A DNA stretch of 64,000 bases. Origin: a virus. Taxonomy: Duplodnaviria; Heunggongvirae; Uroviricota; Caudoviricetes. Both the position numbers and the translations under genes were made by a program. Of this stretch, positions 1,000 through 61,355 are shown piece after piece. The stretch is taken from IMG/VR virus record IMGVR_UViG_3300035210_000151; one strand, written 5' to 3'. Positions within the stretch are counted from its first letter, which is position 1; the number at the start of each line of letters is the position of its first letter. Below the pieces are notes generated by a model. That model saw nothing but the letters and a program-made list of their open reading frames with translations, searched no databases and was not told the DNA's origin.

Positions 1000-2007
1000 A
1001 TGAGCAGTTTGGCCCATTTTTGTAATCGTATTGGTATTGACAGCCATCTGTTACGAGTTATCAAAAAAGACAATATCCTTTATAACAAAAAAACCGCTGA
1101 ACCTCTTTCTGATTGGGTTATTTTTAATGCTGTCAACAATCCTATTCAAGACAGCTTAATTTTCCATAAATTTAGAGACGATGAAAACTTCTATACAGAG
1201 CCGTATTCATTCGTTGCTAATAATCTTCCGATTATGCCTAGAAATACAATCCATCAAAAGGCTACGAAAGAATCAACGTTCCAACGTCATAATAATCAAC
1301 ATTCAATCATTGTTGACAATCAGCCCTACTTTACGAATCTTTTTAATAAAGCGTGTGAAGGTGTTTCAGATTACAAAATGATTTATCCTTTTGAAGATTT
1401 TGGCAACTTTTCGTTTAGTATTGATTTCAGGTCAGAAGTGCTTACACTAAAACGCATTTCAACCAGTTTGGTCAATCGCTCAAATTTGGATGTGCTAGAT
1501 GCAGATAATTACAGTTATGCAGCTCGTTTGAATTTATATCATGGGGCTAATCAAAAAATGCATTTTTCTCCCCACTACATTACAGACTTTTCAGATGACA
1601 TTAATCGTAAGTTAATGGTTATTAATCATGCTGTTTATGATTTATGGCAAGATTTATCTGATGTACCGGGATTTTTGAAATCGAGTATTTATTCATTTCC
1701 AAATGCTACGCATAAATTAAAAGGTCATTACTTTACTATTACTGACACTGGATCTGGTTTGGATATGAACTTGGATAGCTTTTTCAAATTCACCATCAAT
1801 TTTGAAGCTTCCATGAAGCTAGCAAAACAATTCATCAAACGATATAATAATTATAACGATCCCATTGCGTTACATGTGATGAAGATGCTTAATATTATTA
1901 ATCCAGTTTCTCTTGATTTAATGATGGCACAAGATCTTTATGACTTCTATAATGACATTGAAGCTTTTGAAAATTATATTAAAGTATTTGAAATGACCAC
2001 TATTTAG
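1000..2007 (+). CDS. hypothetical protein, M-x-x-I tail
   Basis: 335 aa, RBS GGAG, ends KVFEMTTI. Confidence 0.8.
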   Translation: MSSLAHFCNRIGIDSHLLRVIKKDNILYNKKTAEPLSDWVIFNAVNNPIQDSLIFHKFRDDENFYTEPYSFVANNLPIMPRNTIHQKATKESTFQRHNNQHSIIVDNQPYFTNLFNKACEGVSDYKMIYPFEDFGNFSFSIDFRSEVLTLKRISTSLVNRSNLDVLDADNYSYAARLNLYHGANQKMHFSPHYITDFSDDINRKLMVINHAVYDLWQDLSDVPGFLKSSIYSFPNATHKLKGHYFTITDTGSGLDMNLDSFFKFTINFEASMKLAKQFIKRYNNYNDPIALHVMKMLNIINPVSLDLMMAQDLYDFYNDIEAFENYIKVFEMTTI

Positions 2008-2019
2008 GAGTTCGCAATA

Positions 2020-2868
2020 ATGTTTGTTATGGAATACCGAAAGCCATTAAGTGAACTGGGACAAGACAGTCGAAAGCTTTGGCTTGAAAAAGATATTGCT
2101 GCCTCGCCATCATTTTTGGTCAATGACCTCTTGAAAATTTTTAATCATCATGATATTACACCTTTCTTTTCAAGATCAACAGGAGTTTCTTTCAAATATT
2201 CAGACAGTGATACATTTCTTATCAGAGATGTAGGACAATTTAATACCTTAACTAAAAAATTGTTAGATCCTCACTTTAAATATGGTATTCGTGATTCGCT
2301 GAATAAGTTGACTCCAAAACTTATGAATATTGATAATTTTCTGAAGCCTGATATGATTTCAGGTTTTTATGACATGTTGTTTGATCGTAGTCGCTATTAT
2401 AAAACAGTAGTGGTTAATCTTAATCCAGCCGCTACAACCATTCATGACATTGACTTTCTGGATATTTATTATGACAGTCATTACAGTTTATTTCCGTCAG
2501 CAAATAAGCCATTTTCTAAAAAAGGACCAACTTATACAAATAGAATAGGTGTTTGGTTTAGAATTTATCTTAAACCAGAAGCATGCAGTTTTTCTGTCCA
2601 TAAAGAAAACATTAACTGTATGGCTCAGCATCCGCTAGATGAAACGGTTCGTGAAGATATTAAACTAACAGACTTGAACAAAAAAAAGACCAGTCAGTAT
2701 TTTGTAAACAGTATTGAATATCATTTTAAATTTCATTATGATGATTTTGATTCAGCACTTATTTTGTATTTGGATTCAAAAAGGGATGAACTATCAAAAA
2801 AACTAGGCTATGAGGTCACAGTTGTTGATCGTCATATGCTTGACCTTATCAATATGACGCTTATTTAA
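2020..2868 (+). CDS. hypothetical protein, paralogue family A, M-x-x-I tail
   Basis: MF..YR..WLEKD motif shared with the next two ORFs; ends DLINMTLI. Confidence 0.8.
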   Translation: MFVMEYRKPLSELGQDSRKLWLEKDIAASPSFLVNDLLKIFNHHDITPFFSRSTGVSFKYSDSDTFLIRDVGQFNTLTKKLLDPHFKYGIRDSLNKLTPKLMNIDNFLKPDMISGFYDMLFDRSRYYKTVVVNLNPAATTIHDIDFLDIYYDSHYSLFPSANKPFSKKGPTYTNRIGVWFRIYLKPEACSFSVHKENINCMAQHPLDETVREDIKLTDLNKKKTSQYFVNSIEYHFKFHYDDFDSALILYLDSKRDELSKKLGYEVTVVDRHMLDLINMTLI

Positions 2869-2886
2869 AAATGGAGTTAACTTAAA

Positions 2887-3768
2887 ATGTTTGTTAAACC
2901 TTACCGATCTCACGTAACACAAATGAATGGAATGACTCCAAAACTTTGGTTGGAACGTGATCTTAATATGGCTCCACCTAAACTGGTAACGTCATTAAGA
3001 GAGCATTACAGTCGTTTTAATAGTGATCTCCTTCCGGTTTTGAATACAGCAACCAGTGTTTCTTTTCAGTATGCTGATTCTAATGAATATATTGTTAGAG
3101 ATCTTGGTTACGCCAGTATTATTATGAAATCTTTGCTAGATTTAAAGATTACGGGTGGATTTAATAATAAAATAGATTCAATAGTCAATAAGCTGTCACG
3201 TATTGATAAATTTATAGGTGTTAATAAGGGTGGGTTATTTTACCAAATATTAAGTCGTCAAACCTATGTTCGATCAATTGTTGTTGGTTTAAAAAATGGT
3301 GCTGATTGCATTAGTGATATTGAATACGTTGAACTTTGTTATGATAACAAACCAAATATCATTCCTTTTAATAAGCCCATTGCAAAGAAATTTCCAGTAA
3401 GAACTAAACGAACAGGTGTTAAACTTAAACTTGAAGACAATAATGTTGAGAATACTAAAGTTTATAGAACAGGGGTTAAAATACGACTTTATCTGGAACC
3501 CACAATAGCGAGCTATATAGTTAAAAAAGAAAGTGTTAATTGTATTGAAGACATTACATATTTTGACAGTAGAAATCCGGCACAAATGAGTGATTATCTT
3601 TTGGACAGTACAGAACATCATTTAAATGTTTATCATAAAGATGTTGATGATGAATTAGTTTTAGCTTTTCTTGAAGTGAATAAAGAACGATTAAGTCAGA
3701 AGTTTGGTTACACTGTTACACATATAGATAAATCTATTCTTGATATTATTGAGATGGCAATTTTTTAA
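2887..3768 (+). CDS. hypothetical protein, paralogue family A, M-x-x-F tail
   Basis: MFVKPYR..WLERD; ends DIIEMAIF. Confidence 0.8.
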   Translation: MFVKPYRSHVTQMNGMTPKLWLERDLNMAPPKLVTSLREHYSRFNSDLLPVLNTATSVSFQYADSNEYIVRDLGYASIIMKSLLDLKITGGFNNKIDSIVNKLSRIDKFIGVNKGGLFYQILSRQTYVRSIVVGLKNGADCISDIEYVELCYDNKPNIIPFNKPIAKKFPVRTKRTGVKLKLEDNNVENTKVYRTGVKIRLYLEPTIASYIVKKESVNCIEDITYFDSRNPAQMSDYLLDSTEHHLNVYHKDVDDELVLAFLEVNKERLSQKFGYTVTHIDKSILDIIEMAIF

Positions 3769-3830
3769 AGATTGTTTTATTTTGACTTATGTGCTATTAT
3801 TGAGAACGGATAAATTGGGAGCTTAGTAGT

Positions 3831-4691
3831 ATGTTTTTAAAACCTTATCGTCATCTATTGCTAGATGAATCAATTAAAAGTCATGAAGCTTGGTTGCTTA
3901 AAGATATGGATGCAGCTCCACAGAATCTATTACAATCTTTTATCACCCATGTAGAAGCAATCCCTTCAGATACCATAAAATATTTTGTTCGACCTGCTTT
4001 AAAACAAATGGTGAGTGGCAAGAAACCTACTGACATCTCTTTGCAGTTTTCTGGAAATCACGACTTTATTTTACGTGATTTGGCTTTTGGTGAAACTATT
4101 GTCAAATCGCTTTTATCTAAACATATAGACAAAGAAATTAATGAGTATATCAATATTTTTTTTGATAAACTAAATAATGTTGATTATTTTTTAAATGGCA
4201 CGTATAATCGTGATTTTAATAAAAATAACATGCATTATCATAAATCATTTGTTGTGGGACTTAATCAAAAAGCTACTAGTATTGATGATATAGAATATAT
4301 TGATGTCTTTTTTGATAGTAAACACGATGCAATTCCAACCAGTAAAAAATTAAATCTATGTCCAGAATGTGTTAGTCGAAAAGGTATTGCATTGCGGTTT
4401 AATTTAAAATTAACACCATCATCATTTAGAACTAATGAAGAAACTGTTAACTGTAGTTCAGTGGGTGATGGATCTCAATACAACACTATTACTGATTGTT
4501 CTGGTGCTTTTCATAGCACTTATATTCTCAACAGTACAGAATATTATTTTGATATGTATATTAACGATATTGATAATGTCATGATTAGCTACCTTGAAAC
4601 TCATAAAGATGTATTGGCTCAGCGACTAGGTTATATTCCTGATGCTATTGATAAAGATATATTAAAAGTTATTGATATGGTTGTTATTTAA
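3831..4691 (+). CDS. hypothetical protein, paralogue family A, M-x-x-I tail
   Basis: MFLKPYR..WLLKD; ends KVIDMVVI. Confidence 0.8.
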   Translation: MFLKPYRHLLLDESIKSHEAWLLKDMDAAPQNLLQSFITHVEAIPSDTIKYFVRPALKQMVSGKKPTDISLQFSGNHDFILRDLAFGETIVKSLLSKHIDKEINEYINIFFDKLNNVDYFLNGTYNRDFNKNNMHYHKSFVVGLNQKATSIDDIEYIDVFFDSKHDAIPTSKKLNLCPECVSRKGIALRFNLKLTPSSFRTNEETVNCSSVGDGSQYNTITDCSGAFHSTYILNSTEYYFDMYINDIDNVMISYLETHKDVLAQRLGYIPDAIDKDILKVIDMVVI

Positions 4692-4699: not shown

Positions 4700-5689
4700 A
4701 TGAATCAGATTGAAAAAGAATTATTATTACAATTATTAAATATTGATGAAAAGAATATCAACTACTATTTAAAAAACAACAATGTTTCTCATATGGATAC
4801 AGGTATAGTCGATCTGAGTTTTCTTTTGTATTCTTGTTTGAAATCAGGTTTAACGGATGTTCAGATTGTTTATAATCAAACTACTGATGTTGTAAGTTTT
4901 AAATCATATCTCCGTTCCATAGAAAATATTGATTTTGACCGTTACGAAATTATCAAAAAAGATTTACATCTTTTTTATAAGGGCATTTCTTATGTCATTA
5001 AGGATGCTGGGTTGTATCTTTTTGATGAGCCTACTTATTTACAAATGTCATTGAATGAAAATAACTCAGGACTTCATACAGCTACTTATAGAACTAATAA
5101 ATATATGACTAATGTTGGCCCATCACTTATGTATCGTTTGGTTTATATTGGGTATCCAAAAATAGGTGGATATGTTGATGATGAATTTGATTTCCAGTAT
5201 GAGCATTCTTTTGACGCCCTTGAAGAACTCGATGAAAAAAACTATTTTGTAACAGACGCTCAATTAGATCATAATTTCAAGATCACATCAAAGTATTTAA
5301 CACAAAAGAATTCTAAGAAACTTGATAAAAAATTAAATATTTACAAAGATAGTTTATCTTTAATTACGAAAGGTTCTAAAATCAATGAATATTATTCTCC
5401 AACTAAAAGTAGGATTACTTTTTTCATTAATGAAGATAACGAATTAGATTTCGATCTAAATATGCAATTTAATCATAATCTATATAGCTATTCTGCTTTA
5501 GAGCAAATAGACAAAATTATTAACTACAAGAAACATTTTGAATCGAATTTTTTTATCCATTTTCTATCGTCTTTTGAATCAATTTTTATAGAGTATTTTA
5601 AGAAAAATGATTTTCTTATAGATGTGAGTATTAATTGTGTTGACGATTTATTAAATTATAGAAATTTGATGGGAATGGCTAAAATTTGA
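4700..5689 (+). CDS. hypothetical protein, M-x-x-I tail
   Basis: 329 aa, RBS AAGGA, ends NLMGMAKI. Confidence 0.8.
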   Translation: MNQIEKELLLQLLNIDEKNINYYLKNNNVSHMDTGIVDLSFLLYSCLKSGLTDVQIVYNQTTDVVSFKSYLRSIENIDFDRYEIIKKDLHLFYKGISYVIKDAGLYLFDEPTYLQMSLNENNSGLHTATYRTNKYMTNVGPSLMYRLVYIGYPKIGGYVDDEFDFQYEHSFDALEELDEKNYFVTDAQLDHNFKITSKYLTQKNSKKLDKKLNIYKDSLSLITKGSKINEYYSPTKSRITFFINEDNELDFDLNMQFNHNLYSYSALEQIDKIINYKKHFESNFFIHFLSSFESIFIEYFKKNDFLIDVSINCVDDLLNYRNLMGMAKI

Positions 5690-5786: not shown

Positions 5787-6575
5787 ATGAAAGCTAAAGT
5801 TGATTTAGATATAGAAGTAAAAAAATATTTCATTATTTTTTTTGAACAGCATTTCTCAATAACGCCCATTTATAAACGTATTGATAAAGAAAATGCTTCA
5901 TTTGAAATCGTTGTGGATAATAATAGTGAACTTTTCATTGTGAAGTATGCAAGCCTATTTGCACAAAAATCAGCTTTACAAATACGTTCGACAGCAAATC
6001 CTGCTTTTCTTGAAAAAGTGTTCAATCTATTATTTGACAATGAACAGATTAATTATAAGCAACGATTATTATTTATCCTTGATAGTATTAATGATGTAAA
6101 TGCTAAATTTAAGTTCTTCAGTCAAATTGATTTAGACAGCACACCATTTTTTTCGTTTAAGTCTTCAATAGATAAAAAAGATAACAGGCTTTATTATAGT
6201 TTGTGTACTAAACGATATTTTAGAATGCAGGTTAATAGTAATTTATATAACGTCACTGAACGAAGTGCTCACTTTTTAACAGGACGGTTTGATTTAGATT
6301 TAAATGTTAAAAACACTCAGATTGAATTTAGATGCCAACTTACTTCAAGTAGTTTAGACGAATATGCGGTTGATAGTGTAATTATGATTACAGTTGCATT
6401 GGACAAATTCGAAAAATCAGTTAAAAGATGTAAGAAGCAAATGATATCTCTTATACTGGATGAGTGTTTTGCTGATATTGTTGCTGACCATGATATCTCA
6501 TTAAAAAAATTGCAGGCCATGTCAGAAGAAGAAATTAAACCTTATGCTGATTTGGTTTATATGTCGAGGATTTAA
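5787..6575 (+). CDS. hypothetical protein, M-x-x-I tail
   Basis: 262 aa, ends DLVYMSRI. Confidence 0.75.
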   Translation: MKAKVDLDIEVKKYFIIFFEQHFSITPIYKRIDKENASFEIVVDNNSELFIVKYASLFAQKSALQIRSTANPAFLEKVFNLLFDNEQINYKQRLLFILDSINDVNAKFKFFSQIDLDSTPFFSFKSSIDKKDNRLYYSLCTKRYFRMQVNSNLYNVTERSAHFLTGRFDLDLNVKNTQIEFRCQLTSSSLDEYAVDSVIMITVALDKFEKSVKRCKKQMISLILDECFADIVADHDISLKKLQAMSEEEIKPYADLVYMSRI

Positions 6576-6577
6576 AT

Positions 6578-7366
6578 ATGAAACAATTCTTAAATTTAGA
6601 ATTTCCAAAGATTGGTTTACTCAGCCATATCATGCCACAGTTAAAAGATTATAGACTGGATGAAGAACGTTCGTTTTATGATATTGTACCGAACCGTTTT
6701 AAAGGTAATATTAGACGTTCTTTTCTGAGAATTCATAAAGAAACTCATTACGTCTCTTTCCTTGGCTCAAACCTAGCAGATAAGCTCTTTCTTTTGTCAT
6801 CACTAGATTACCTTCCACTTGATAACAACTATATCTTGGAAATGTTTAATATCATCTATACAGCAGCCGAAAAATATAAAATCTATGACCCACGCAAGAA
6901 CAAGAGTCATCAGAAAAATATATTAAATAGGTTGAACAATAAAAACAAGCTTGAATTTACATCTCGTTTCAAAACTCATTTTGATGTTATTGGCATGTTG
7001 TCGAGTAAAAGAAAATATCGAGATCTTGTGATGAGTAGACAATATCTATTTAACGAACAATGCCAATTAACAGAAGTTTATTTATTCCAATTACCTATTC
7101 CATACCCCGATTCTAATGAGACACTTTTCAATGTAATGATTACGCAATTAAATGGAGTGTGGCATATCAATTGTGAACAAATTAAGCAAAGTCCCGATGG
7201 TTACATTGGCGTTGATTATTGTTTTTCTGATTTAGAATCCTTTTCTTTTTTGATTAACAATGAATTTGCTACTCATTATAAATCAGTGATTAAACATAAC
7301 CTTGATATAGACACTGATGTGCTTAATGAAGATTATGTTTCACTTTTGAGAATGATGGTAATTTAA
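6578..7366 (+). CDS. hypothetical protein, paralogue family B, M-x-x-I tail
   Basis: PNRFKGN and NEDY..LL.M motifs shared with 11394..12194; ends SLLRMMVI. Confidence 0.8.
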   Translation: MKQFLNLEFPKIGLLSHIMPQLKDYRLDEERSFYDIVPNRFKGNIRRSFLRIHKETHYVSFLGSNLADKLFLLSSLDYLPLDNNYILEMFNIIYTAAEKYKIYDPRKNKSHQKNILNRLNNKNKLEFTSRFKTHFDVIGMLSSKRKYRDLVMSRQYLFNEQCQLTEVYLFQLPIPYPDSNETLFNVMITQLNGVWHINCEQIKQSPDGYIGVDYCFSDLESFSFLINNEFATHYKSVIKHNLDIDTDVLNEDYVSLLRMMVI

Positions 7367-8265: not shown

Positions 8266-8838
8266 TCAAATCAATGCCATTTTTAATACTTTGTCATCTA
8301 TTTCTACGTTTTCTTTTATATCTGTAATAAATCTATGAAATTCTTTTAAATCACTAAAAATATAAAACCGTTGTTGTTCTTCATTGTTTTTTAATACTTT
8401 GTTTAATTGTAGCTTTCCATCATCCATCAATTTAAATAATACAAAAAAATCAGCTTCGACTTGAATGGTGTAAGTATCTTTTGTCAAGTTTACTGAATAG
8501 TTATTTAATTTTCCATAATAGGTAGTGTCTATATTGAGTTTAATCATCTCTAAGAATATATCATGTTTCCTATTTTGAACTTCCTTATAAATATTATCAT
8601 TTAATACTTCAATGTAATCTATAAGTTTTGAATCTCTGTTTTTATTTTCAATTCGATCCGCTATCAGTTTTCTTTTAATTGTTTCTAATTTAAAATCTTC
8701 AAATTCATAATCATAGTCTACCAAACCCATGCTCAACGATAATGAATTGAATTCAATCCCTAAATCTAGATTGGGTATCATTATATATTTTAATGATATA
8801 AATGTATTGTATTTACGACATTGATTTAAAAAATTCAT
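8266..8838 (-). CDS. hypothetical protein, M-x-x-I tail
   Basis: 190 aa, ends KVLKMALI. Confidence 0.75.
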   Translation of the reverse strand: MNFLNQCRKYNTFISLKYIMIPNLDLGIEFNSLSLSMGLVDYDYEFEDFKLETIKRKLIADRIENKNRDSKLIDYIEVLNDNIYKEVQNRKHDIFLEMIKLNIDTTYYGKLNNYSVNLTKDTYTIQVEADFFVLFKLMDDGKLQLNKVLKNNEEQQRFYIFSDLKEFHRFITDIKENVEIDDKVLKMALI

Positions 8839-9036: not shown

Positions 9037-10578
9037 ATGGATATGAAAGCAGGTATGCTTGAACCAAGGAACATGTATAAGAATTATACACTCAGTCTTT
9101 ATTTAGCCATCACTCCGAAACGTTTGAACGTTACGGGTTTAAATTGTATTGATACTTTGACAGGTATGATTGATAAAGAAGGGGTTTCATCACTTACTGA
9201 TATGCTGGTTAAATTGTATAGCCAACCTGTCAGTCAAAAAATAAAGTCCATTTATGGTGTGGGTCATTATAAAACTTATTTTGATCTTTATGATTTCGCC
9301 ATAAAATCACATAAACACATTCATTTGAACCTTATTGAATTTCTTAAAGAAGAGGGGAAACGTGAATTTTATTATGCCTTGAAGAATGTCAACGAATCCA
9401 TGAACTATAAAGAAGGTGCATTATTTAGCCAACTTTCACTTCTTCACAAAAATAAGCTAACACGGGAAGAATTTTTAATCTGGACGCAAGAAGTTGTTGA
9501 CCGAGAAGCTAAAAATAGACTGCAAAAAGACCTTATTACACGAAGACTTGTACAAGCAGAAGCAAACCATGCCCAAGTTATAAAATCGACCACTGTTTCA
9601 GTCATTATTCCAGTACCTTCTTTTGAACCAAAAAGTTCAAGCTTTAACGATGGTGCTGTGGATGTGAACATTTTAAAAGAACGCAATGAAGCTAGAGCAA
9701 AATTTACATCAATGTTTGCCCCCTACAAAGGTGGTATAGATTTGGTATTAGGATATCAAGAAAAAGGCTTTTTTCAAAAGAAACACAATTGTTTAAATTT
9801 AAATATACACAATAGTCAAGAAGGTATTATTATTGCTGGGGAAGATTCTGGCCCGAAAGAACTGCTACGTTCCTATATCTATCAGTCCATCAGTCAATCT
9901 AGTGGATTATTACTCTTTTCGGCTCTCTCTGATAAGTCTACTTTGACCTATGTGTTTCAGGTAGCTAAACATTTTGATATTGTGGACGATGTGCATGTAT
10001 TCTATTATGGTTCTGATGAGTTATCCACATTGACCATCAATGATTATATTAAATCCAATAAAATTGTATTAATTTTGTATCCAGAATTTCTAGGCACTAC
10101 CAGTAATGAAGAAAATCTTATTAAATGCTATCAAAGTATTAATTCTATTATTTCTAATGTGAGCGTCAGTAATATTAATAAAGGTGCCACAAAGTTTCCA
10201 TTCAATATTTATTTCAATGAACTTTCATTTCCAACTTATATAGGAGAAGAACTTAGAAAATTGATAGCGAACTTATCATGTTTGCATATACACAATGTTA
10301 ACTATTACATTGTTAATGAAAGCTTAACATTACTCTATTCTGAATTTAGTCCAGATATTTTTAATCATATCAAGAATGTCATTATTCTTAATAATGAATC
10401 TGGTAAAGAAATCTGTCAATATTTCGACACTCAAAAATTAAAACCTGCTGACTTTTCAGCATTAGAACCGCTAGAATTTTATTATTTCTCTGAAAATGTT
10501 TTGGTTAATTCTCGTAAATTCAATGGGATTTATATGCCAATTGATATTGATGTAAATCTCGATGATCACCTAAATTAG
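9037..10578 (+). CDS. degenerate DotL/IcmO/TrbC-like coupling-protein NTPase domain with unknown N-terminus; Walker A broken, no all-alpha domain
   Basis: C-terminal half follows DotL motif order: LVLG..IIIAGEDSGPKE..SGLLLF..DKS..DDVHVF..NKIVLILYP..PFNIYFNE. Comparison from memory. Confidence 0.6.
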   Translation: MDMKAGMLEPRNMYKNYTLSLYLAITPKRLNVTGLNCIDTLTGMIDKEGVSSLTDMLVKLYSQPVSQKIKSIYGVGHYKTYFDLYDFAIKSHKHIHLNLIEFLKEEGKREFYYALKNVNESMNYKEGALFSQLSLLHKNKLTREEFLIWTQEVVDREAKNRLQKDLITRRLVQAEANHAQVIKSTTVSVIIPVPSFEPKSSSFNDGAVDVNILKERNEARAKFTSMFAPYKGGIDLVLGYQEKGFFQKKHNCLNLNIHNSQEGIIIAGEDSGPKELLRSYIYQSISQSSGLLLFSALSDKSTLTYVFQVAKHFDIVDDVHVFYYGSDELSTLTINDYIKSNKIVLILYPEFLGTTSNEENLIKCYQSINSIISNVSVSNINKGATKFPFNIYFNELSFPTYIGEELRKLIANLSCLHIHNVNYYIVNESLTLLYSEFSPDIFNHIKNVIILNNESGKEICQYFDTQKLKPADFSALEPLEFYYFSENVLVNSRKFNGIYMPIDIDVNLDDHLN

Positions 10579-11393: not shown

Positions 11394-12194
11394 TTAAATT
11401 TTAATCATTTCTAATAAAAGAAGATAATCTTCGTTATAATCGACTTTTTCTTCATTTAGCCATTTTTTCACTGCAGCTTGGTATCTGTCTAAAAAACGTT
11501 CAGTAAGCGATTTTTTTAAGCATTCTGGATTGGTCACGTCTTCATTGGCTCCATTTTCTGTTTTAGTCAGATAAATCATTGTTTTTTCTTTGTTATGCAA
11601 TATGGATACTGTCATTTTAAAAAGACCTTTCATGGGAAATTCTAAGGTGTGACAAGGCAGAATGGTCAGATCATCAGCCATATAATAATGTTCGCTCAAA
11701 TAAAGCTGTCCATTAATAGATTTACTACGTCCAGTGGTCATTTTACCCACAAGTCCATATTTTAAACCTACTTCAATCTTATCTTGAAGTCTATTCGGAT
11801 TATCTAACCATTTTTCTAATTTTTGGGATGTCTTCTGCATGTTATGATGGTCATAATACTTGTAATAATGAGCGATTTCATACACTGTCTTAAAAGTGTC
11901 TAGAACGAGTTTTTTATTGATAGGTGCTTTATTAAATTTATCAAACAAAACTACTTGTTCTTCTACTGTCCCACCTAATAACATTACCAAACTATCTTCC
12001 CTATCAATGTGAAGGCTTGCTGATGATGGATTGCCTTTAAATTTATTAGGCTTAATGCTGTAGCTGGCAGATGTATAATAGTTATATAGCTCTTGAAATT
12101 CTTCATCTTCTTCTGTCAGCATATAATTGCTAAGATTACTTTTCACGAATTTAAGTAAATCTATTTTTTTAATATTGCACTCGAAATACTTCAT
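11394..12194 (-). CDS. hypothetical protein, paralogue family B, M-x-x-I tail
   Basis: PNKFKGN motif; ends NEDYLLLLEMIKI. Confidence 0.8.
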   Translation of the reverse strand: MKYFECNIKKIDLLKFVKSNLSNYMLTEEDEEFQELYNYYTSASYSIKPNKFKGNPSSASLHIDREDSLVMLLGGTVEEQVVLFDKFNKAPINKKLVLDTFKTVYEIAHYYKYYDHHNMQKTSQKLEKWLDNPNRLQDKIEVGLKYGLVGKMTTGRSKSINGQLYLSEHYYMADDLTILPCHTLEFPMKGLFKMTVSILHNKEKTMIYLTKTENGANEDVTNPECLKKSLTERFLDRYQAAVKKWLNEEKVDYNEDYLLLLEMIKI

Positions 12195-18356: not shown

Positions 18357-18423
18357 AGTATTAATATCCTCTTTTTTAAGCATACTAGCATTCAAAGAAT
18401 AATTAGCAATATGGATTATGATA

Positions 18424-19041: not shown

Positions 19042-19105
19042 CAGTTAACATCCTCTTTTACAGTATGCTAGCATTAGAATGATAACTTTCAATAGATAGA
19101 TAATA

Positions 19106-22165: not shown

Positions 22166-22232
22166 TAAGATCTCCATATACAGAATAAAATTTTGTCTAT
22201 ATTATCACATTATCTTAAAAATATCAACTTAA

Positions 22233-50606: not shown

Positions 50607-51254
50607 ATGAATAGTAAATTGAATTTTTTGAAAAAGTTCCTAAAAAGCTCTCAATCTTTATTGTTGTTTAGCACGATTGTCTTTTATTTTTTTTCTATGA
50701 ACTATCCAATTTATGAGAATACTGCTTTCAGAGTTCTAAACAATCTTAGCCTATTTTTAAGCATTTCATCTTTGATTATATTATTTCGAAAGGCTTTTAT
50801 TAATTCATTGGCAATTAATATTACTTTTATTGTATTTACATTTTTATTCTATGTTAATAGTTATTTTAAAATTATGGATACACATCTGTTTAATGTTTTT
50901 TACTTTTTTATGCTGGGTGTTAGTAATTTATTTATGAACCTGAAAGCCTTATTGTTCATTGTTGAAGCCTATAAAATTGAAGACGCAGAAAGGTTTCCAG
51001 TTTTCGATTGTATTGAATTGGATGCCTTTTTGTCTGATGACGATTTAATTTATTATACGCATGATCCTTATGCTCGTGAATTTGTTAAATTTAAAATCTA
51101 TTACAGTAATTTTTATGCCTATGCTGGCAATATCTACTATGGTGGGCGAAACTATGATTTTTGGGATGTTAATAAATATATTCAAGAACAAAATATAGAC
51201 ATGAACCAATTGTCAGAAGATGACTTTCATTTAATAGCTATGATTAACATTTAA
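50607..51254 (+). CDS. 4-TM membrane protein, family F, M-x-x-I tail
   Basis: KIE..FP.FDCI motif; ends DDFHLIAMINI. Confidence 0.8.
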   Translation: MNSKLNFLKKFLKSSQSLLLFSTIVFYFFSMNYPIYENTAFRVLNNLSLFLSISSLIILFRKAFINSLAINITFIVFTFLFYVNSYFKIMDTHLFNVFYFFMLGVSNLFMNLKALLFIVEAYKIEDAERFPVFDCIELDAFLSDDDLIYYTHDPYAREFVKFKIYYSNFYAYAGNIYYGGRNYDFWDVNKYIQEQNIDMNQLSEDDFHLIAMINI

Positions 51255-51401
51255 AGAGGACTTATTTACTCTTTTACTCGAAAACCCTGTAGACAACTGT
51301 TCATCTTTTCGGTTATAATAGACAGTGTTTAAAACAAGCATAAGCTTGGTTAAATTAATGATTTAAGACATACCACCTTTCGTTTATTTTGAGGATTAAA
51401 A

Positions 51402-52055
51402 ATGAACATCACACTTATTACTCAATTCCTAAAAAGCACTCATTTTTTGACCATTTCTATGGTTTTACTGTTTGCTGTGTATCTTTCACTGGTTACTTTT
51501 TCTGTACCAGCCTTTTCTTCCATTGTTTTTAAAATTGGTGTTTTTGTGGTGTTGGCTATTTCAATGCTCTCATTGTATAGCTTATGTCGAAAAGCATTTA
51601 TCCACTCGAAAACTGTAAGCACCGTCATTATTGTATTGAGTTTGGTATTCTACATTAATGAGTATTTACAAATTATACCTACTATTGCAACTCAAATTGT
51701 TTACCCTTTGTTCATGGGTATTTGGAGTTTGTATCTTGCGATGAGCGTTCTCTTTTTCAAAATGGAAGAACATAAAATTGAAGACAATTCTATTTTCCCA
51801 GAATACGATTGTATATCTATTGACCCCTTTGTTGAAGCTTATGATTTTGGTCAAAATCCACGGGAACCACTAGAATATGAGTTTGAACGGTTTACGATGT
51901 TTTATAAAAAAGCTTATGCGTCAAATGGCATTCTTTATTTGGGTAAAGAGAAATGTGATTTTTTTCAAGCTATTGATTATTTTAAAGAAGCTAAATCTGA
52001 AATTAATGAAATTTCTAGTGATGATTTTAAACTGATCACTATGTTTAATATTTAA
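51402..52055 (+). CDS. 4-TM membrane protein, family F, M-x-x-I tail
   Basis: KIE..FPEYDCI; ends DDFKLITMFNI. Confidence 0.8.
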   Translation: MNITLITQFLKSTHFLTISMVLLFAVYLSLVTFSVPAFSSIVFKIGVFVVLAISMLSLYSLCRKAFIHSKTVSTVIIVLSLVFYINEYLQIIPTIATQIVYPLFMGIWSLYLAMSVLFFKMEEHKIEDNSIFPEYDCISIDPFVEAYDFGQNPREPLEYEFERFTMFYKKAYASNGILYLGKEKCDFFQAIDYFKEAKSEINEISSDDFKLITMFNI

Positions 52056-52057
52056 GG

Positions 52058-52711
52058 ATGCCTACTATGCGTCGTAATCTTAATTATCTATTCAAATTTA
52101 TAACCAGCTCGCAATGTGTTATGCTGGCATTGCCAATACTCTTACATGTGTATTTAATGTATTTCTATGACAAGCCTAATGCTTTATTCCTTATGGTCAA
52201 TCAATTTACGATATTGATATCTTCATTGCCACTTCTATTGATATTTTTCAGAGCCTACAGTCATTCTAAGGTTGTTAGTTCTTGTGCGGTGTCATTAAGT
52301 ATTCTCTTTTATTTGAATGCATATTTTAATTTTATTGAAATCCATAACCTTACTGGAATTTATCTTTCATTGTTACTCTTTGGTTCTATTTTCATTTCGT
52401 TCAAATCTTTAACTGCTATTCAGGAAATTCATCAAATTGAAGGATTGAGAAAGCTCCCTAAATATGACTGTATTGAAATATCAACTATCTCCAACTTTGA
52501 AGACTCTTACGAAAAATTAGATCCATATCAAAAAAGCTTTACTAAATTTAAGTTTTACTACAAAAACTGCTATGCTTATGGTGGACAAATTTATTACAAT
52601 GGTGAAAAACATGACTTCTCCAATGTCAATAATTACCTCAATGAGCAGAAAATTGACATAAATCGACTAACATCGGACGATTTCAAGCTAATATCTATGA
52701 TTTTTATATGA
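52058..52711 (+). CDS. 4-TM membrane protein, family F, M-x-x-I tail
   Basis: QIE..LPKYDCI; ends DDFKLISMIFI. Confidence 0.8.
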   Translation: MPTMRRNLNYLFKFITSSQCVMLALPILLHVYLMYFYDKPNALFLMVNQFTILISSLPLLLIFFRAYSHSKVVSSCAVSLSILFYLNAYFNFIEIHNLTGIYLSLLLFGSIFISFKSLTAIQEIHQIEGLRKLPKYDCIEISTISNFEDSYEKLDPYQKSFTKFKFYYKNCYAYGGQIYYNGEKHDFSNVNNYLNEQKIDINRLTSDDFKLISMIFI

Positions 52712-53113: not shown

Positions 53114-53914
53114 TTATTGTTTTGGCGATATATCCACTTTCACTGTTTGACTGGCTAAGTTGTTAAATAATGCACAGCGTGCAACTAATATTCTATTTTC
53201 AACAGGAATACTAGTGTCATTGTATTCAAATGGGCATGTTTTTCCATTGACAGTTATTTCATAGTTAACTAAGGTAGCTTGACCAACACCATTGATAGTT
53301 CTGAATATCGTTACTCCACCTTGATCGGTTAAAAATTCTATTTGCTGACCATTTATTGTTGATGGCGATAAGCTTGCTGGATCATATCTTTCAAATGACG
53401 CATAAGAACCTATTGGTGCAAAATACCCGTAGTAATGCGTAGTCCCCCATCCAAAATAATGAGCAACTTGCATGGTATGTGTAAATCTTGTTCCATAAGC
53501 AGTCTTTGTATTTTTTTGATTGTTTTCAGTTTCTGATTCAGTAATCAAATCACCTATATTCCGCTTATTGCCTAAACTTGATATTTCAGTATTTTGTACA
53601 GTTCTTGTTTTTTCTCCTGTACAATCATTCGCGGATTGTTGAAAGCTTACACCTGTTGGCTTCGTATTGACGGTAGGTATCCAATTAGTGCATGTTTTAG
53701 GACCATAAACCCAATCAGTGATTATGGACTCACCTTGACTCCATGTTTCGACTGGTTCGGGTTCAACGGGTTCTTTCTCAGGCTCATCTGGACTTTTTAT
53801 ATTGATAAAATTTATGTTTTCCAATGGATAAACTAATCCGTATGAAGCAGACGAATTGATTGTTTGAATACTAACTAATAATATCATTAATGGTGTGAGT
53901 TTGTAGATTTTCAT
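53114..53914 (-). CDS. exported protein, family H
   Basis: Signal peptide, YGLVYPLE, PEKEPVEPEP linker, W/C-containing beta module. Confidence 0.75.
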   Translation of the reverse strand: MKIYKLTPLMILLVSIQTINSSASYGLVYPLENINFINIKSPDEPEKEPVEPEPVETWSQGESIITDWVYGPKTCTNWIPTVNTKPTGVSFQQSANDCTGEKTRTVQNTEISSLGNKRNIGDLITESETENNQKNTKTAYGTRFTHTMQVAHYFGWGTTHYYGYFAPIGSYASFERYDPASLSPSTINGQQIEFLTDQGGVTIFRTINGVGQATLVNYEITVNGKTCPFEYNDTSIPVENRILVARCALFNNLASQTVKVDISPKQ

Positions 53915-55831: not shown

Positions 55832-56026
55832 AAGAACTTAGCAACAACATTAAACCTCACATCATTGTGGGGTTTTTTATTGTATGTTATTTGACTTTTT
55901 ATTTATCTACTATAATTTAATAGTAAATAAGGCATTTTGTAGATATGCCTACCTAATCACTACATGGGAAGCCAACGCCATCTACCAAACTAAATAACAG
56001 ATAAAGTGATATCGGAGCATACACAC

Positions 56027-57679
56027 ATGAAAACAATCTATTTCATCGACAACGAGTCGATCAAAAGAACAGCTAAGTCTATTCAAAAAACAAACCCAAC
56101 TTTCAAACACACTGTCATACTGGATGACTTGGCTAAATTACTTGGCTATACATCATATAACCAGTATGAACACTATTTAACCAATGCAATCCTTTCAAAA
56201 GATAACAGTTTAAAGTCTCTTAAGGCACTCACAAAAATAGATTCAATTGAATTACTTATTTTAAAAGATAAATTTATTGATAAATTAGCGAGCACTGGAT
56301 ATTCCATTGATAGTTTATATTTCATTAACAAAATAATAGATAATCAGAGACAAGGTTTTATTGAACATTCACATTTAAATTTGAAAGCATATATTTACTA
56401 TCTCCCTTTCGTTTTCACTCCTACAAATGAATTGTTGAATGTAGATGCTACTTTTATTCGTCATGGTCAGTTACAAAATATTATTAATATTGTTATAGAT
56501 GAATATAAAAAAATAGATGTTGAAGCTATCGAGAACCTTATTCGTAGGATGAAAATATCTCCTGACTATTCTGTTGATAGTGAACTCTATAATGCATTTA
56601 GCAAATTTAATGATGACTTAAAAACTAGAGGAATTTATTATTATATCAAATCCATCATGGAAGATTTTGATTATGATGAAGGCTATTTAACCAAACTTAT
56701 ATTTGAAGGCCATAGTGTTGAAAAAATAGAGCATCACATAAACATAAGGATAGAAAAACAAAGGCTTGCAAGAAATGATGAAATTCCAGTATTCTTCAAA
56801 GCTGATAAATACACAAGTCTTCAAAACTATTACCCATTTATACGTGAATCAGTGACAGAAGAAAAACCTTTTATTTTTGGTAGACAGGTTGACCAAAGCC
56901 CTTTTTTTGCGACTCCTGAACATTTGCATTCAAATATTTCAGTATTAGGTGCTCCGGGGACTGGTAAAGGTGTTTTTATTCATTCACTCATGTTTCAACT
57001 AATGATGAATAATAGAGGTTTTTGTGTTATGAATCCATTAGGTCGAGATTATTCTACAACTTACATAAAAAATATGGCAACTTTATTAAATAAAAAGAAT
57101 GATATGTTTGTTTTTAATACAGATGCGAGTACAAAACTAATTTCTAGTAGCATTCATAATGATAAAATTGTTTACACAACATTTGATACAAGAGATGATG
57201 ATAGGCGTAACGTAGATACTTTAAGACTTGGGAGCAATAGATTTGAACAAATATTGATCGCCTTGACTGAGCAATTCTTTACTTCAAAATTTAGAAATAA
57301 GAAGATTCCTTTTTATATCATTATTGAAGAGGCTCATAATTTGATGAATATTAATGAAAACACTGCAAATATGATTAAAAAATTGAATGAATTAAATATT
57401 TTCTTCGTTTTTGATCATCAACTTCATGAAGATTATATCAATGATCTTTGCAACACAACTTTGGTTACTAATTCATCATTTTTCTTGTTCAAAAATGCTG
57501 CCAACTTTGAATTCAAACAACTTATGATTAATTTATATGATCGAAAAGAACTTATTGGGACAACTGGACCGACTAAAAAGCTACCGCCTGTCTTCAGCAT
57601 CATTCAGAAGGGTGTTCATACAGGACAGTTCATTACTGAAATTGATGAAGATTTATACGATAATATTCAACAACCATAA
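56027..57679 (+). CDS. coupling-protein (DotL/TrbC/TraD-like) P-loop NTPase lacking the all-alpha domain, with an N-terminal helical domain
   Basis: FIFGR..HSNISVLGAPGTGKG..RGFCVMNPLG..NDMFVFN..PFYIIIEEAH..FVFDHQ; N-terminal AK.I..KHT.ILD.LAK.LGY.SYN. Confidence 0.7.
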   Translation: MKTIYFIDNESIKRTAKSIQKTNPTFKHTVILDDLAKLLGYTSYNQYEHYLTNAILSKDNSLKSLKALTKIDSIELLILKDKFIDKLASTGYSIDSLYFINKIIDNQRQGFIEHSHLNLKAYIYYLPFVFTPTNELLNVDATFIRHGQLQNIINIVIDEYKKIDVEAIENLIRRMKISPDYSVDSELYNAFSKFNDDLKTRGIYYYIKSIMEDFDYDEGYLTKLIFEGHSVEKIEHHINIRIEKQRLARNDEIPVFFKADKYTSLQNYYPFIRESVTEEKPFIFGRQVDQSPFFATPEHLHSNISVLGAPGTGKGVFIHSLMFQLMMNNRGFCVMNPLGRDYSTTYIKNMATLLNKKNDMFVFNTDASTKLISSSIHNDKIVYTTFDTRDDDRRNVDTLRLGSNRFEQILIALTEQFFTSKFRNKKIPFYIIIEEAHNLMNINENTANMIKKLNELNIFFVFDHQLHEDYINDLCNTTLVTNSSFFLFKNAANFEFKQLMINLYDRKELIGTTGPTKKLPPVFSIIQKGVHTGQFITEIDEDLYDNIQQP

Positions 57680-57792
57680 GACTACTGTTAAAAGAAACCC
57701 TTTCGAGGGTTTTTCTTTTATTTGCTGTTAAATAAACATTTTCAAGTTTGACAAAATAGATATTTGAGTTACATTATTTGGGGGAGAATTCT

Positions 57793-58626
57793 ATGAAATG
57801 GTTAACTAAATATTTTAATAAAAAAGTCAATAATGAAGAATTATTTTTAAATCATTTAAAGTCAACCTATGATTTTGATGAAGCCTGCATAATTAAAAAA
57901 GATGACTCCGACTTTCTAAATATTATTAGGACTATTGCAACTTCAATTATTGTTCGTGATAATAGACCGCTTGGTATATCAACCGCCGATCCTGACAGCA
58001 TTCAAGAACTTACTAACAAGATCCTTTCAGAATATGATTATTCTATTATAAAACTTTCACGTAACTACACAATGTCTAAATCGTATGATTATGCTTTGTT
58101 TTCAGAAAATGTTACTGGATATAGTATTTCATTTAAGTATTTAACTGATCGTAATTTGTTTGCCTCATTTCCTCATCTTGATGGTTTTGGATACTATTAC
58201 AAAGAACTAATTAAGATAAGCAACTATAAATTCACGAATAATCAGCAACCTGCTTGTTTAAGACCCTCTTATTCAATTAGATTTCCATTGTTAAACAATG
58301 GTATGTTAGATGATTATAAAAGACCTTACTATGTAAGACTAGAAACTGGTCATCGTGATTTAGAAGTTACTGTTGATATTTATGATGATGATAATAAAAC
58401 TAATTATTGTGCTAAATTGTTTTATGGGAACACACTTTTAAAAGAAGAAAATTATAGTTCAATGAATGATTTTACTTTATTTTTAGATGAATTTCTATTT
58501 CCTTACAATTTAACAGAAACTATTATTAATGAAGTTGGAATTCAATTGCCATTATCGTTTACACCAGATTTTGTAAAGTCCATGAACAAAGATTTTAAGC
58601 TTACTATTGATATGTTAAAGATATAA
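57793..58626 (+). CDS. hypothetical protein, family G, M-x-x-I tail
   Basis: FLNHLK..YDFD, FLFP; ends LTIDMLKI. Confidence 0.8.
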   Translation: MKWLTKYFNKKVNNEELFLNHLKSTYDFDEACIIKKDDSDFLNIIRTIATSIIVRDNRPLGISTADPDSIQELTNKILSEYDYSIIKLSRNYTMSKSYDYALFSENVTGYSISFKYLTDRNLFASFPHLDGFGYYYKELIKISNYKFTNNQQPACLRPSYSIRFPLLNNGMLDDYKRPYYVRLETGHRDLEVTVDIYDDDNKTNYCAKLFYGNTLLKEENYSSMNDFTLFLDEFLFPYNLTETIINEVGIQLPLSFTPDFVKSMNKDFKLTIDMLKI

Positions 58627-58637
58627 GGATAACTACA

Positions 58638-59498
58638 ATGACAGACTTAGCCAGAAAGAAAAATTTAGAAACTTCAAATATAAAAGTCAATGAAGACCAA
58701 GAATATATTGAGATCTTTTTAAATCATTTAAAAAATGAATATGATTATGATAGTGTATCTCTTTATACTTTTCAATCACCATTTGAAAGTTGTCAATTAA
58801 ATATTTTAGATGACGCAATAAACTCAATAAGTAATATGGCGAATCGTTTTGACAATTATAAAAAATTAATATTAGAGTATTTTGATACTATTAAGATTGT
58901 CAAACTTACAAGAATTTATGAATTTCATGAAGATAGTTATTATTTAATTATTTCAACTCAGTGTAATGTTAATGAATACACTATAAATTTATCATCTAGG
59001 TTTAATGATTTTGGTATTTTAAATTTTGAAAATGTTGATGATGAAAAATTTATTTATTCTTTCGAAGACTTTATGATTTATTTAAATTTTAAAATTAATC
59101 GTGTTTCTAAATTATGTCAATTTGAATCAGTTTTTATAGTTAATTCTAAAATCAATAATAAGCCACCATTTTTAATATATAATCATAAAACAAACTTTCA
59201 TCTTCCAGTTTGTTACAATAGAAAAGCACAAATAATTGTTAAAAGCACTAAAATAAACGAAATTGAAACATTGCTAGATTTAACACTTAATTTAAATAAA
59301 ACGGTCATTAAGCATTGTTCATGTATTATTAATAGTGCAGATTTAAATATCCAGATATTGATAGAAAGATTTATTTTTCCATTGAATGAATCTATTATTT
59401 TACTGAATGAATGGAATATTTATCCCCAATTAACTTATGATTTCATGAATGTTGATTATAGTAATTTTTGGGATTTAAAAATGATGGTGCAAATATGA
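58638..59498 (+). CDS. hypothetical protein, family G, M-x-x-I tail
   Basis: FLNHLK..YDYD, FIFPL; ends DLKMMVQI. Confidence 0.8.
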   Translation: MTDLARKKNLETSNIKVNEDQEYIEIFLNHLKNEYDYDSVSLYTFQSPFESCQLNILDDAINSISNMANRFDNYKKLILEYFDTIKIVKLTRIYEFHEDSYYLIISTQCNVNEYTINLSSRFNDFGILNFENVDDEKFIYSFEDFMIYLNFKINRVSKLCQFESVFIVNSKINNKPPFLIYNHKTNFHLPVCYNRKAQIIVKSTKINEIETLLDLTLNLNKTVIKHCSCIINSADLNIQILIERFIFPLNESIILLNEWNIYPQLTYDFMNVDYSNFWDLKMMVQI

Positions 59499-59514
59499 AA
59501 ATTAGGAGATTTAT

Positions 59515-60420
59515 ATGAAAGAAGGACATGTATTCAGGTCGTTTACTGACACTGGTGATATCTATTCACAGCAAATACTGCAGAACAAGACACTTGAAAA
59601 CTTTCTTTTGCATTTAAAAGAGTCCCTTGATTATGAGCAGGCTACCATTTATATTTATGACAACATAACTCAAAACTCAAAGGTTGACCTTGTTGAGAAG
59701 GCTATTAATTTTATATTAAAGGCTCGTTTCAAAAATAATATAGACTCTGATCAATATAGTCATTTTAAAGATAGATTATTTAACTACTCAGAAGTGATTC
59801 AGGTTGTTCAATTGACGCGAGTTTATAATAGACATAAAGAATACCACTATTTATTTGTATCCAGTTATCTTGATGGTGATGAATTGAATATCATTATCCC
59901 TTCTGAATTAAATGAATGTTCTTTCTTAGGGGTTCCATCAATTAATATAAGTCAGTATCGAAAATATCCTAGCTATGATGATTACAACCATTTTGTTGAA
60001 TTTAAAGAAGATAAAGTTAACAATAATAGAACTCATTTTCTTCAATCTGTTTGTGAAATAAACATGGAAATAAACTACTCCAGTCCTATTCTATCAAGCC
60101 GTCTTAAAACTACTTATGACGCTATCAGTTACGATAGAAAAGCCCAAGTCGTTTTAACATTATACCCACAAGATTATGAGTTTAACTGTGATTATGTTAT
60201 TGATTTATCATTAATATACAAACAAAAAACAATAAAAAGAACAGTTATTGAGCATCGTAGTGTAAACGATTTGGATAAAATCATTGAGAAATTCATATTT
60301 CCATTGGCTGAATCTTATGAACTTATTAATGAATGGGAGTTAGATCCTGAATTGACAGCAGAGTTTATGTCACATGATTATGAATCTTACTGGGAATTAA
60401 AACAAATGGTGGAAATATGA
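59515..60420 (+). CDS. hypothetical protein, family G, M-x-x-I tail
   Basis: FLLHLK..LDYE, FIFPL; ends ELKQMVEI. Confidence 0.8.
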   Translation: MKEGHVFRSFTDTGDIYSQQILQNKTLENFLLHLKESLDYEQATIYIYDNITQNSKVDLVEKAINFILKARFKNNIDSDQYSHFKDRLFNYSEVIQVVQLTRVYNRHKEYHYLFVSSYLDGDELNIIIPSELNECSFLGVPSINISQYRKYPSYDDYNHFVEFKEDKVNNNRTHFLQSVCEINMEINYSSPILSSRLKTTYDAISYDRKAQVVLTLYPQDYEFNCDYVIDLSLIYKQKTIKRTVIEHRSVNDLDKIIEKFIFPLAESYELINEWELDPELTAEFMSHDYESYWELKQMVEI

Positions 60421-61355
60421 TAAAGGCTATTTTAAATTTTATCAAGGGTAAAGAAAACTTAGTTCCTTTAAAAGATGAAGCTATGCCAGAACTTTCAATA
60501 CTGGACGAAAGATTATCTAGATTAAATAAACATTTTATTTTACTAGACAAACCTTTAAAAAATCTATTAACTTTTCTGAAAGAAAAATATGATTATGATA
60601 GTGCTTCTTATTATTATTATTCACAACCATTTTCTCAATATAATGAAGACGATCAGCTTTTTTTAAAAGAGGCTTTAGATCAAGCATATGCTAAATCTAG
60701 GACGCCTGAACTGCATTCTTTTGCTTTTATTGAACTTAAACGATTTTTTGATAATAATCATAGTTCAAATATTGTTCCTATATACAGCTTTTTACAGAAT
60801 GATGATATCATCAGAATTCTTCTTGATGGGATTGACATTAATTTAAATTTTCTAAGAATAAAAACCATTAATTTAAAAAACATTAATTTAAAAAACATTC
60901 ATGGACGTAAATTTATTGAATACAGAGAGTATTATGATGATGACACAAATACAATGCCTTCATTTCAACACCTACAATCTGTTTTTAGTGCTGCAATTCC
61001 ATTAAGAAATTCACCACCTATTTTAGATATTAATGATGCTCCTGTTACAGAAGAAGAATTTCTTAACTATAAAGATCGAGATGTTGAGTTGATCATTAGA
61101 CGATATTTTGATAAAAACTCTATCGAGCACTGTTCTATTGAATTGTTGAACAAAAAAGATATTATAAAATCCAAATTGATAAAAATGACTAATGAAAAAA
61201 TTGATATTGATAAAGAGGTTGATGATTTTTTGTTTCCACTTCTAGAAACATCTGAATCGCTAGCTTTGTCTAATCTTACACCTGTATTTTCTAAGGACTT
61301 TATGTCGAATGATTTTTCAGATTATATTCTGTTAAAAAAAATGGAAGACATTTAA
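60417..61355 (+). CDS. hypothetical protein, family G, M-x-x-I tail
   Basis: LLTFLK..YDYD, FLFPL; ends LLKKMEDI. Confidence 0.8.
   Translation: MIKAILNFIKGKENLVPLKDEAMPELSILDERLSRLNKHFILLDKPLKNLLTFLKEKYDYDSASYYYYSQPFSQYNEDDQLFLKEALDQAYAKSRTPELHSFAFIELKRFFDNNHSSNIVPIYSFLQNDDIIRILLDGIDINLNFLRIKTINLKNINLKNIHGRKFIEYREYYDDDTNTMPSFQHLQSVFSAAIPLRNSPPILDINDAPVTEEEFLNYKDRDVELIIRRYFDKNSIEHCSIELLNKKDIIKSKLIKMTNEKIDIDKEVDDFLFPLLETSESLALSNLTPVFSKDFMSNDFSDYILLKKMEDI

Follow-up and report, generated by a model that had tools for sequence, protein, structure and literature searches.

A lineage-specific C-terminal tag on unrelated orphan proteins of a likely low-GC megaplasmid

The 64,000-nucleotide stretch of DNA analyzed here (the window) is filed in IMG/VR as a Caudoviricetes record (IMGVR_UViG_3300035210_000151); judged from its sequence, it is likely part of a megaplasmid of low (32%) guanine-plus-cytosine (GC) content, of the pMEGA/pMPPla107 kind. 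We find that a large class of fast-evolving orphan proteins of this element carries a portable, lineage-specific terminal tag, with Met at position -4 and usually Ile at the very end, that is under selection at the protein level. By analogy with known systems, and with a little less than even confidence, we read this tag as a lineage-specific export signal for a plasmid-encoded Dot/Icm (type IVB) coupling complex.

A strict C-terminal motif on unrelated proteins

An original prediction, made from the window alone, had listed 19 proteins from about 11 unrelated families with a common terminus. All 19 termini and the residue counts given for them proved exact: with Met at -4 throughout, the last residue is Ile in 16, Phe in 2 and Val in 1, and position -7 is Leu, Val or Ile in 17 and Thr in 2 (the gene listed at 57793 is open reading frame (ORF) 57778-58626 read from a later start). 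C termini of the form M-x-x-[IFV] end 19 of the 79 nonoverlapping ORFs of at least 60 amino acids, compared with 0.36 expected from composition (binomial P 2e-27); this P value applies to a pattern picked post hoc and includes paralogs, and 11 families still carry the motif. Two further ORFs (15981 and 25709) have Met at -4 minus the remaining motif. The tag unit spans ~14 residues, is acidic, and can be written phi-x-phi-phi-[DE]-M-x-x-I-COOH, with hydrophobic residues (phi) at -7, -6, -4, -3 and -1. The acidic residues that had been noted upstream are likewise present, Asp and Glu making up 23% of positions -20 to -10 in 113 tagged proteins versus 15% in 242 untagged ones.

The bodies that precede this tag are unrelated, as had been proposed. 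When the 11 window families were trimmed of their tails and compared profile against profile (hhalign), 55 of 55 pairs scored at most 1.1% probability. None of the 19 tagged proteins matched Pfam, and three of them (50607, 51402 and 52058) are predicted to contain two to four membrane segments each.

The tag in relatives of the element

We compared the window with four 21 kb metagenome loci, L001-L004 (on contigs of 0.52, 1.86, 1.54 and 0.11 Mb, respectively), and with three IMG/VR records of 160-193 kb, G001-G003. Synteny with the window is kept in L001 and L002. Met stands at -4 in 60 of 249 (G001), 60 of 229 (G002) and 52 of 208 (G003) ORFs, versus 1-14 at adjacent positions, and in 6 of 23, 7 of 23 and 4 of 22 ORFs of L001, L002 and L003; the distant L004 has none (0 of 22). 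These counts are partly nonindependent because G002 is the element of L002 and G003 is close to G002. About a quarter of the ORFs of the syntenic relatives carry Met at -4. In all, 187 ORFs end in M-x-x-[IFVLYC], a few of them by chance, and they form 38 clusters whose lengths are narrowly distributed (209-312 amino acids for the central 80%). Only 3 of the 428 cluster pairs tested by hhalign (of 780 pairs) merged; the 55 window-family pairs were all compared. Pfam matched none of the 54 tagged proteins of G001.

Three side observations concern protein ends in these relatives. In L004 (380-5146), three paralogs share a variant tail (Leu at -4, Tyr at -1) and lack the Met tag; this may be a third lineage code. 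In G001 (169034-180847; L016-L017), ~14 tagged paralogs form an array interrupted by a Sir2 gene, and one member has Ile for Met at -4. Elsewhere in G001 (104629-105820; L013), two small ORFs adjoining an RNA ligase have QL[DE]LF-type ends, which we take to resemble the beta-clamp binding motif.

Tails are conserved while bodies diverge

Codon usage places the conservation in the protein. Of 68 tagged genes from the window and G001, 61 have T as the second codon base at -7, 51 at -6 and 62 at -1; the information content is no more than 0.3 bit in third bases at -7 and -6, and no more than 0.44 bit in the 30 nucleotides past the stop codon. The terminal Ile codon is ATT in 40 of 58 cases, close to the background of 3379 of 5639, and the tail shows conservative replacements, Met to Ile among them. 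The claim that this is not a DNA repeat is thus upheld, since second positions are constrained, wobble bases are free and DNA beyond the stop is unconserved.

Tagged bodies evolve faster than untagged genes while their tail is conserved. Between G001 and G002, 42 pairs of tagged orthologs are 49% identical over the body and 70% over the terminal seven residues; for 77 untagged pairs both values are 67%. Tagged pairs were chosen by the tag in either member, which conditions the value at -4; Met is present in both members of 38 of the 42 pairs.

Two tagged proteins were modeled with AlphaFold. The model of 59515 (predicted local distance difference test (pLDDT) 85) is alpha/beta with a terminal helix at 290-300, and that of a G001 array protein (pLDDT 92) has one at 226-258. 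In both models a long beta-meander is followed by a helical end, with the tail helix predicted to be ordered to the last residues (pLDDT 74-97). Foldseek returned nothing for either model at E<=0.001, VIA-align gave the 59515 model a best Z of 5.0 with no clear solved match, and the ESM Atlas yielded no usable match. Together, the codon, profile and model data support the originally proposed terminal helix, acting at the protein level on unrelated bodies.

The element resembles known megaplasmids

The syntenic relatives sit on contigs of 0.52, 1.54 and 1.86 Mb, and Pfam matches are few, as expected of a megabase replicon made up mostly of unknown genes with housekeeping genes scattered among them. 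The best-matching sequencing runs are peat metagenomes, eight of which hold at least half of the window's words and two of which may be its source; no RNA dataset is among the matching runs listed. The gene content includes RNA ligases, TK, ThyX, an AcrAB-TolC-type pump, OmpA- and SlyB-like lipoproteins, and translation and NAD genes scattered amid orphans. This gene content fits the description of the pMEGA plasmids of Enterobacteriaceae in the accessible text of PMC12633466. According to that text, pMEGA plasmids are 1.3-1.6 Mb in size with 26-29% GC, ~80% unknown genes and tandem arrays, and they carry AcrAB-TolC, SlyB, FtsH and Clp proteases, and NAD and tRNA-repair genes. The window's lineage differs in its 32% GC, its peat setting and its relatives of up to 1.9 Mb, a comparison made by description and not by sequence. 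A second link is to the Pseudomonas plasmid pMPPla107: gene 53114 has matches in pMPPla107 and the Leaf58 plasmid only, among 72,556 plasmids, and its family has 10 copies in pMPPla107 and 3 in G001.

The suggestion that the tag directs packaging into a virion is unlikely to hold. No capsid, portal or terminase family was matched among the scanned proteins, and relatives lie on 1.5-1.9 Mb contigs. The one PHROG "virion structural protein" match (62976) has a homolog on a Vibrio plasmid as well. IMG/VR calls three of the relatives "provirus"; one of these, G002, corresponds to a stretch of the 1.86 Mb contig. A PHROG 2087 and 1383 gene pair (61740-63578, + strand) is 82-96% conserved in relatives, and because it also occurs on the Vibrio megaplasmid, its "virion structural" label is doubtful.

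A parallel tag on pMPPla107

On pMPPla107, analyzed whole, 156 of 863 ORFs of at least 120 amino acids (18%) end in [DE][LFMI]G[LMIV], 141 of them in exactly DLGL. This end is preceded by Arg-Asp at -11/-10, and position -7 is hydrophobic (consensus R-D-x-x-[FLM]-G-x-DLGL); only three ORFs carry the Met motif. The 156 ORFs form 87 clusters with a median length of 422 amino acids, and Pfam matched 1 of 91 tagged representatives, a Sir2. Since this Sir2 bears DLGL and its Sir2 paralog does not, the tag is portable. By BLAST, no tagged family is common to pMPPla107 and the Met-tag element. pMPPla107 also encodes the Dot/Icm proteins DotA, DotB, DotD, DotG, DotI, DotM and DotN and a coupling protein.

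A search of GTDB with the DLGL DNA pattern gave 52 loci, 22 on one 971 kb Pseudomonas plasmid and 7 in other Pseudomonadaceae; two of the remaining 23 were examined, and neither was tagged. Judging from these occurrences, the reader of DLGL outside megaplasmids may be a host protein. Among the Pseudomonadaceae loci, a tagged ORF of 132 amino acids is repeated on near-identical mobile DNA in four genomes (L096, L112, L127 and L147). A different end, SPSP or SPEP, occurs on 11 pMPPla107 ORFs and is possibly a second, weaker tag. We had considered DLGL as a beta-clamp motif and dropped this idea because the Gln-Leu half is missing.

Candidate readers encoded in the window

Four untagged proteins of the window are candidate readers of the tag. 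Gene 56027 stands directly upstream of the tagged array at 57778..61355, and the sole match of its family at E<0.01 in the PDB (177,635 sequences) is Legionella DotL; against the pMPPla107 coupling protein the family scored 87% probability. It has 30 homologs, some on contigs of 1.92, 1.69 and 0.77 Mb, and none was found in GTDB representatives or PLSDB; a search with L003 DNA found none in complete Escherichia coli genomes. Its weaker paralog, 9037, is like it soluble, truncated and adjoining tagged genes. Of 3843 coupling-protein matches, the best 120 included none that could be traced to a contig of a relative.

The other two are AAA+ proteins. The family of 46467, a predicted soluble FtsH-like protease, comprises 34 clusters at 50% identity, and the two P-loops and the HExGH motif are retained in 30 of 34 relatives. 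We found no description of such a putative soluble double-P-loop FtsH-like family with a novel N-domain in the literature consulted. In a complex prediction, the N-terminal 510 residues of 46467 and the C-terminal 52 residues of the 59515 family scored 0.01, which we counted neither way. The Lon-type AAA module of 43703 is preceded by a long helical region with stretches that, by eye, look ankyrin-like.

Tentative reading as a type IVB export signal

The Met and DLGL tags are likely address labels, since unrelated proteins of two megaplasmids each end in their own tag. Under the export reading introduced above, the element would encode a complete type IVB secretion system (T4BSS), and its coupling complex of DotL, DotM and DotN, perhaps aided by the soluble DotL paralogs, would bind the tail. 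The tagged proteins would then constitute a large arms-race cargo, delivered to neighboring cells or to recipients, for anti-defense or competition. This reading gains from the DotL-like paralogs in the window and from the analogous tag on Dot/Icm-bearing pMPPla107. It is also favored by the strict register and the acidic stretch, which resemble the Glu-rich C-terminal signal (E-block) that DotM binds in Legionella Dot/Icm substrates, as described in the accessible part of PMC5802825. The combination of acidic stretch and hydrophobic C terminus expected of Dot/Icm substrates is present in the tagged proteins, in a form milder than a Glu-rich block. A simple hydropathy scan found an N-terminal hydrophobic segment in 3 of 20 tagged window proteins and 7 of 56 in G001, and it found no lipobox (0 of 20 and 0 of 56), in line with the lack of Sec and lipoprotein export signals expected of Dot/Icm substrates. 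We counted for export the missing lipobox, the tandem arrays, the fast evolution of bodies with a kept tail, and the multicopy family common to pMPPla107. In addition, the pMEGA plasmids, alike in size and GC, carry a type IV coupling protein, DotM, DotN and IcmW (accessible text of PMC12633466).

Several results weigh against this reading. The DotL match spans just 84 positions of 56027, which lacks a membrane anchor. No complete type IV secretion system was seen in the window, the 160-193 kb records or the 21 kb loci of relatives. The first 150 kb of pMPPla107, with the annotated primase and most transfer genes, lacks any tagged ORF. DLGL ends single small ORFs in six of the seven other Pseudomonadaceae loci, and in the 2.9 million viral contigs of IMG/VR the pattern has two loci, one being a contig with two tagged ORFs. 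Effector-type Pfam domains were found in 0 of 19 tagged proteins of the window, 0 of 54 of G001 and 1 of 91 of pMPPla107 (the Sir2). As controls, we examined other plasmids. No tag was present on pND6-2 (108 ORFs, whole plasmid), on the Vibrio megaplasmid pVP-19-VB00998 (379 ORFs, 400 of 882 kb), which encodes a coupling protein with 47% identity to its pMPPla107 counterpart, or on the MPF_I plasmid p60503-DIM (357 ORFs, 400 of 408 kb). Because these three Dot/Icm or MPF_I plasmids are untagged, a T4BSS is insufficient for a tag. The type IV secretion signal raised in the original prediction is accordingly supported by the DotL-like paralogs and the tag on a Dot/Icm megaplasmid and opposed by these three plasmids. 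A Variovorax plasmid had no tag in 50 of 801 kb, nor did a Bosea plasmid in 280 of 709 kb (L199-L212), where the only signal was Pro at -3 (40 of 236 ORFs). On the Bosea plasmid Pro is enriched at both -3 and -1, possibly a second, weaker tag.

Extended to other elements, the export reading would make a fifth to a quarter of the genes on Dot/Icm megaplasmids of several lineages, encoding hundreds of proteins, a fast-evolving cargo with a C-terminal barcode peculiar to each lineage (MxxI here, DLGL in Pseudomonas) and injected into other bacteria; we regard this wider form as possible and somewhat less secure than the export reading of the Met tag itself. If true, it would describe a Legionella-sized effector arsenal owned by a plasmid. 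In an alternative form of the wider proposal, the tagged proteins would be F-box-like adaptors, a library spread over the whole plasmid and serving its AAA+ protease.

Alternative explanations

The strongest rival, unlikely yet a serious contender, is that the tail docks proteins on an AAA+ protease. It could act as a degron that times their removal, or it could be the invariant end shared by a library of substrate adaptors. Adaptors with a variable binding body and a docking tail are known: SspB and RssB dock by their tails on ClpX, and viral F-box proteins are built alike. A hydrophobic free C terminus is also typical of FtsH, Lon and Tsp degrons. The putative reader would be the FtsH-like 46467, the Lon-type 43703 or a host protease, and such a tail stays a candidate, given that both a soluble FtsH-like protease and a Lon-type AAA module are encoded in the window. 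In its favor, 46467 is an intact protease among tagged genes (HExGH and Walker A), with a lineage-specific N-domain and the conservation described above, and it directly precedes tagged genes in the window, L001 and L002. With one gene in four tagged, this adjacency says little. pMPPla107 carries an FtsH-like gene, and none was found on the Vibrio plasmid or pND6-2, both untagged; since one is also present on the untagged p60503-DIM, it is insufficient for a tag. The DLGL proteins outside megaplasmids suit a host reader, whereas the ordered helix predicted for the tail (pLDDT 74-97) does not resemble a loose degron.

It is improbable, in our estimate, that the tail binds another hub of host or plasmid origin, such as a scaffold, a chaperone, a TPR/PDZ-type carboxylate clamp or a membrane complex, and so localizes proteins in the carrier cell. 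The Met and DLGL tags do have hydrophobic residues at -1, -3 and -7 alike, but no candidate hub was identified. The tag moreover tracks the plasmid more than the host, because DLGL has only two loci in 2.9 million viral contigs and 22 of its 52 GTDB loci lie on one megaplasmid.

Still less probable is descent of the tagged proteins from one or a few extremely diverged superfamilies with the tail as a structural capping helix. The narrow range of lengths and the three merged cluster pairs fit such an origin, and the predicted beta-meander followed by a helical end in both models makes deep homology among some families conceivable. Against it stand the 55 of 55 window-family pairs unrelated by profile, the occurrence of the tag on soluble and multi-membrane proteins, and DLGL on one pMPPla107 Sir2 and not its paralog; a capping helix, further, needs no exact register to the stop codon. 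A signal in DNA or RNA (a recombination site, a re-initiation ATG or translational coupling) is largely refuted and highly improbable: the invariance of ATG at -4 follows from the motif definition and ATT often encodes the terminal Ile, but variable third positions, the absence of conservation past the stop, near-background ATT use and Met-to-Ile swaps all contradict it.

Comparison with known systems

C-terminal type IVB signals are known; the literature searched gave no instance of a strict tag that spans a plasmid and varies by lineage. Legionella Dot/Icm signals of another kind consist of FxxxLxxxK and terminal hydrophobic residues (cited in the accessible part of PMC9519443). The Met tag is like the Legionella signals in being C-terminal and acidic then hydrophobic, some substrates having membrane segments, and, by extrapolation for this element, in marking hundreds of unrelated substrates per replicon. 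It is unlike them in being much stricter (Met at -4, Ile at -1) and plasmid-borne, eukaryote-like domains were not found, and translocation here is only a prediction. The kib T4BSS of Pseudomonas putida kills bacteria and is a precedent for type IVB protein delivery into bacteria, but it involves one effector-immunity pair on a genomic island with no common strict tag (PMC9519443, same part). The Pseudomonas megaplasmids pMPPla107 and pBASL58 (accessible text of PMC6482414) share with the element the multicopy secreted family, the RND pump and the FtsH-like gene, and 18% of pMPPla107 ORFs likewise bear a C-terminal tag; pMPPla107 differs in its tag sequence, its longer tagged proteins (median 422 amino acids), its GC of 53% and the lack of a common tagged family by BLAST.

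Degrons and adaptor tails of AAA+ proteases (ssrA, LpxC, the SspB XB tail) have a short hydrophobic free C terminus. The Met tag shares this feature, and candidate proteases are encoded in cis; it differs in being helical, acidic, Met-specific and present on a quarter of the replicon's genes.

We found no description of the Met or DLGL tag in a literature search whose scope left out most subscription papers. The terms "C-terminal" and "C-terminus" do not occur in the main text of PMC12633466, whose two supplementary PDFs, possibly relevant, fall outside this scope, and "C-termin" does not occur in the accessible text of PMC6482414. New here are the megaplasmid setting, the DotL-like paralogs, the link to the cultured pMPPla107 and the untagged control plasmids. 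About 80% of the genes of such megaplasmids have no assigned function (accessible text of PMC12633466); the tag marks a quarter as one functional class and offers a simple handle for testing it. Because pMPPla107 is cultured and has already been studied in Pseudomonas stutzeri (according to the accessible literature), the question is directly testable. It bears on how type IVB machines, whose known signals are loose, choose substrates.

Features of the window

Table 1. Tagged genes, candidate readers and a lineage marker, with positions in the window.
Position	Strand	Feature	Basis
1000..2007	+	Tagged orphan, singleton family	Terminal motif and profile comparison
2020..4691	+	Three tandem tagged paralogs (2020, 2887, 3831)	Terminal motif
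4700..5689	+	Tagged orphan, singleton family	Terminal motif and profile comparison
5787..6575	+	Tagged orphan, singleton family	Terminal motif and profile comparison
6578..7366	+	Tagged orphan, paralog of 11394	Terminal motif, E 4e-16
8266..8838	-	Tagged orphan, singleton family	Terminal motif and profile comparison
9037..10578	+	Untagged degenerate paralog of the 56027 DotL-like protein, candidate reader	hhalign 65%, E 5.9e-5, 152 columns
11394..12194	-	Tagged orphan, paralog of 6578	Terminal motif
21557..22177	-	Tagged orphan, singleton family	Terminal motif and profile comparison
30804..31481	+	Tagged orphan, singleton family	Terminal motif and profile comparison
43703..46474	+	Untagged candidate reader (923 amino acids): novel N-terminal region, Lon-type AAA+ module, no protease domain	TIGR00763, E 2e-24, residues 695-896
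46467..49316	+	Untagged soluble FtsH-like protease, candidate reader: novel N-domain, M41 peptidase with HExGH, two P-loops	Domain matches; no membrane segment predicted
49977..50606	+	Tagged orphan with tagged orthologs in L001 and L002	Synteny in relatives
50607..52711	+	Three tandem tagged membrane-protein paralogs (50607, 51402, 52058)	Terminal motif, predicted membrane segments
53114..53914	-	Untagged, secreted-looking Cys-repeat protein, lineage marker	Multicopy family common to pMPPla107
56006..57679	+	Untagged soluble candidate reader with truncated DotL/IcmO-like P-loop region (gene 56027)	6sz9_A, E 5.2e-5, 84 positions
57778..61355	+	Four tandem tagged paralogs (57778, 58638, 59515, 60417)	Terminal motif; alpha/beta model for 59515, end helix 290-300

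Two neighboring gene groups complete the picture of the window. Family C, five tandem untagged paralogs (17748-20996, - strand), has a conserved end of its own; it matched nothing in Pfam and showed no profile similarity to those tagged clusters that were tested. The RND pump (37927-43530, + strand) is a complete AcrAB-TolC type, ~60% identical to proteins of Pantoea and Rahnella plasmids.

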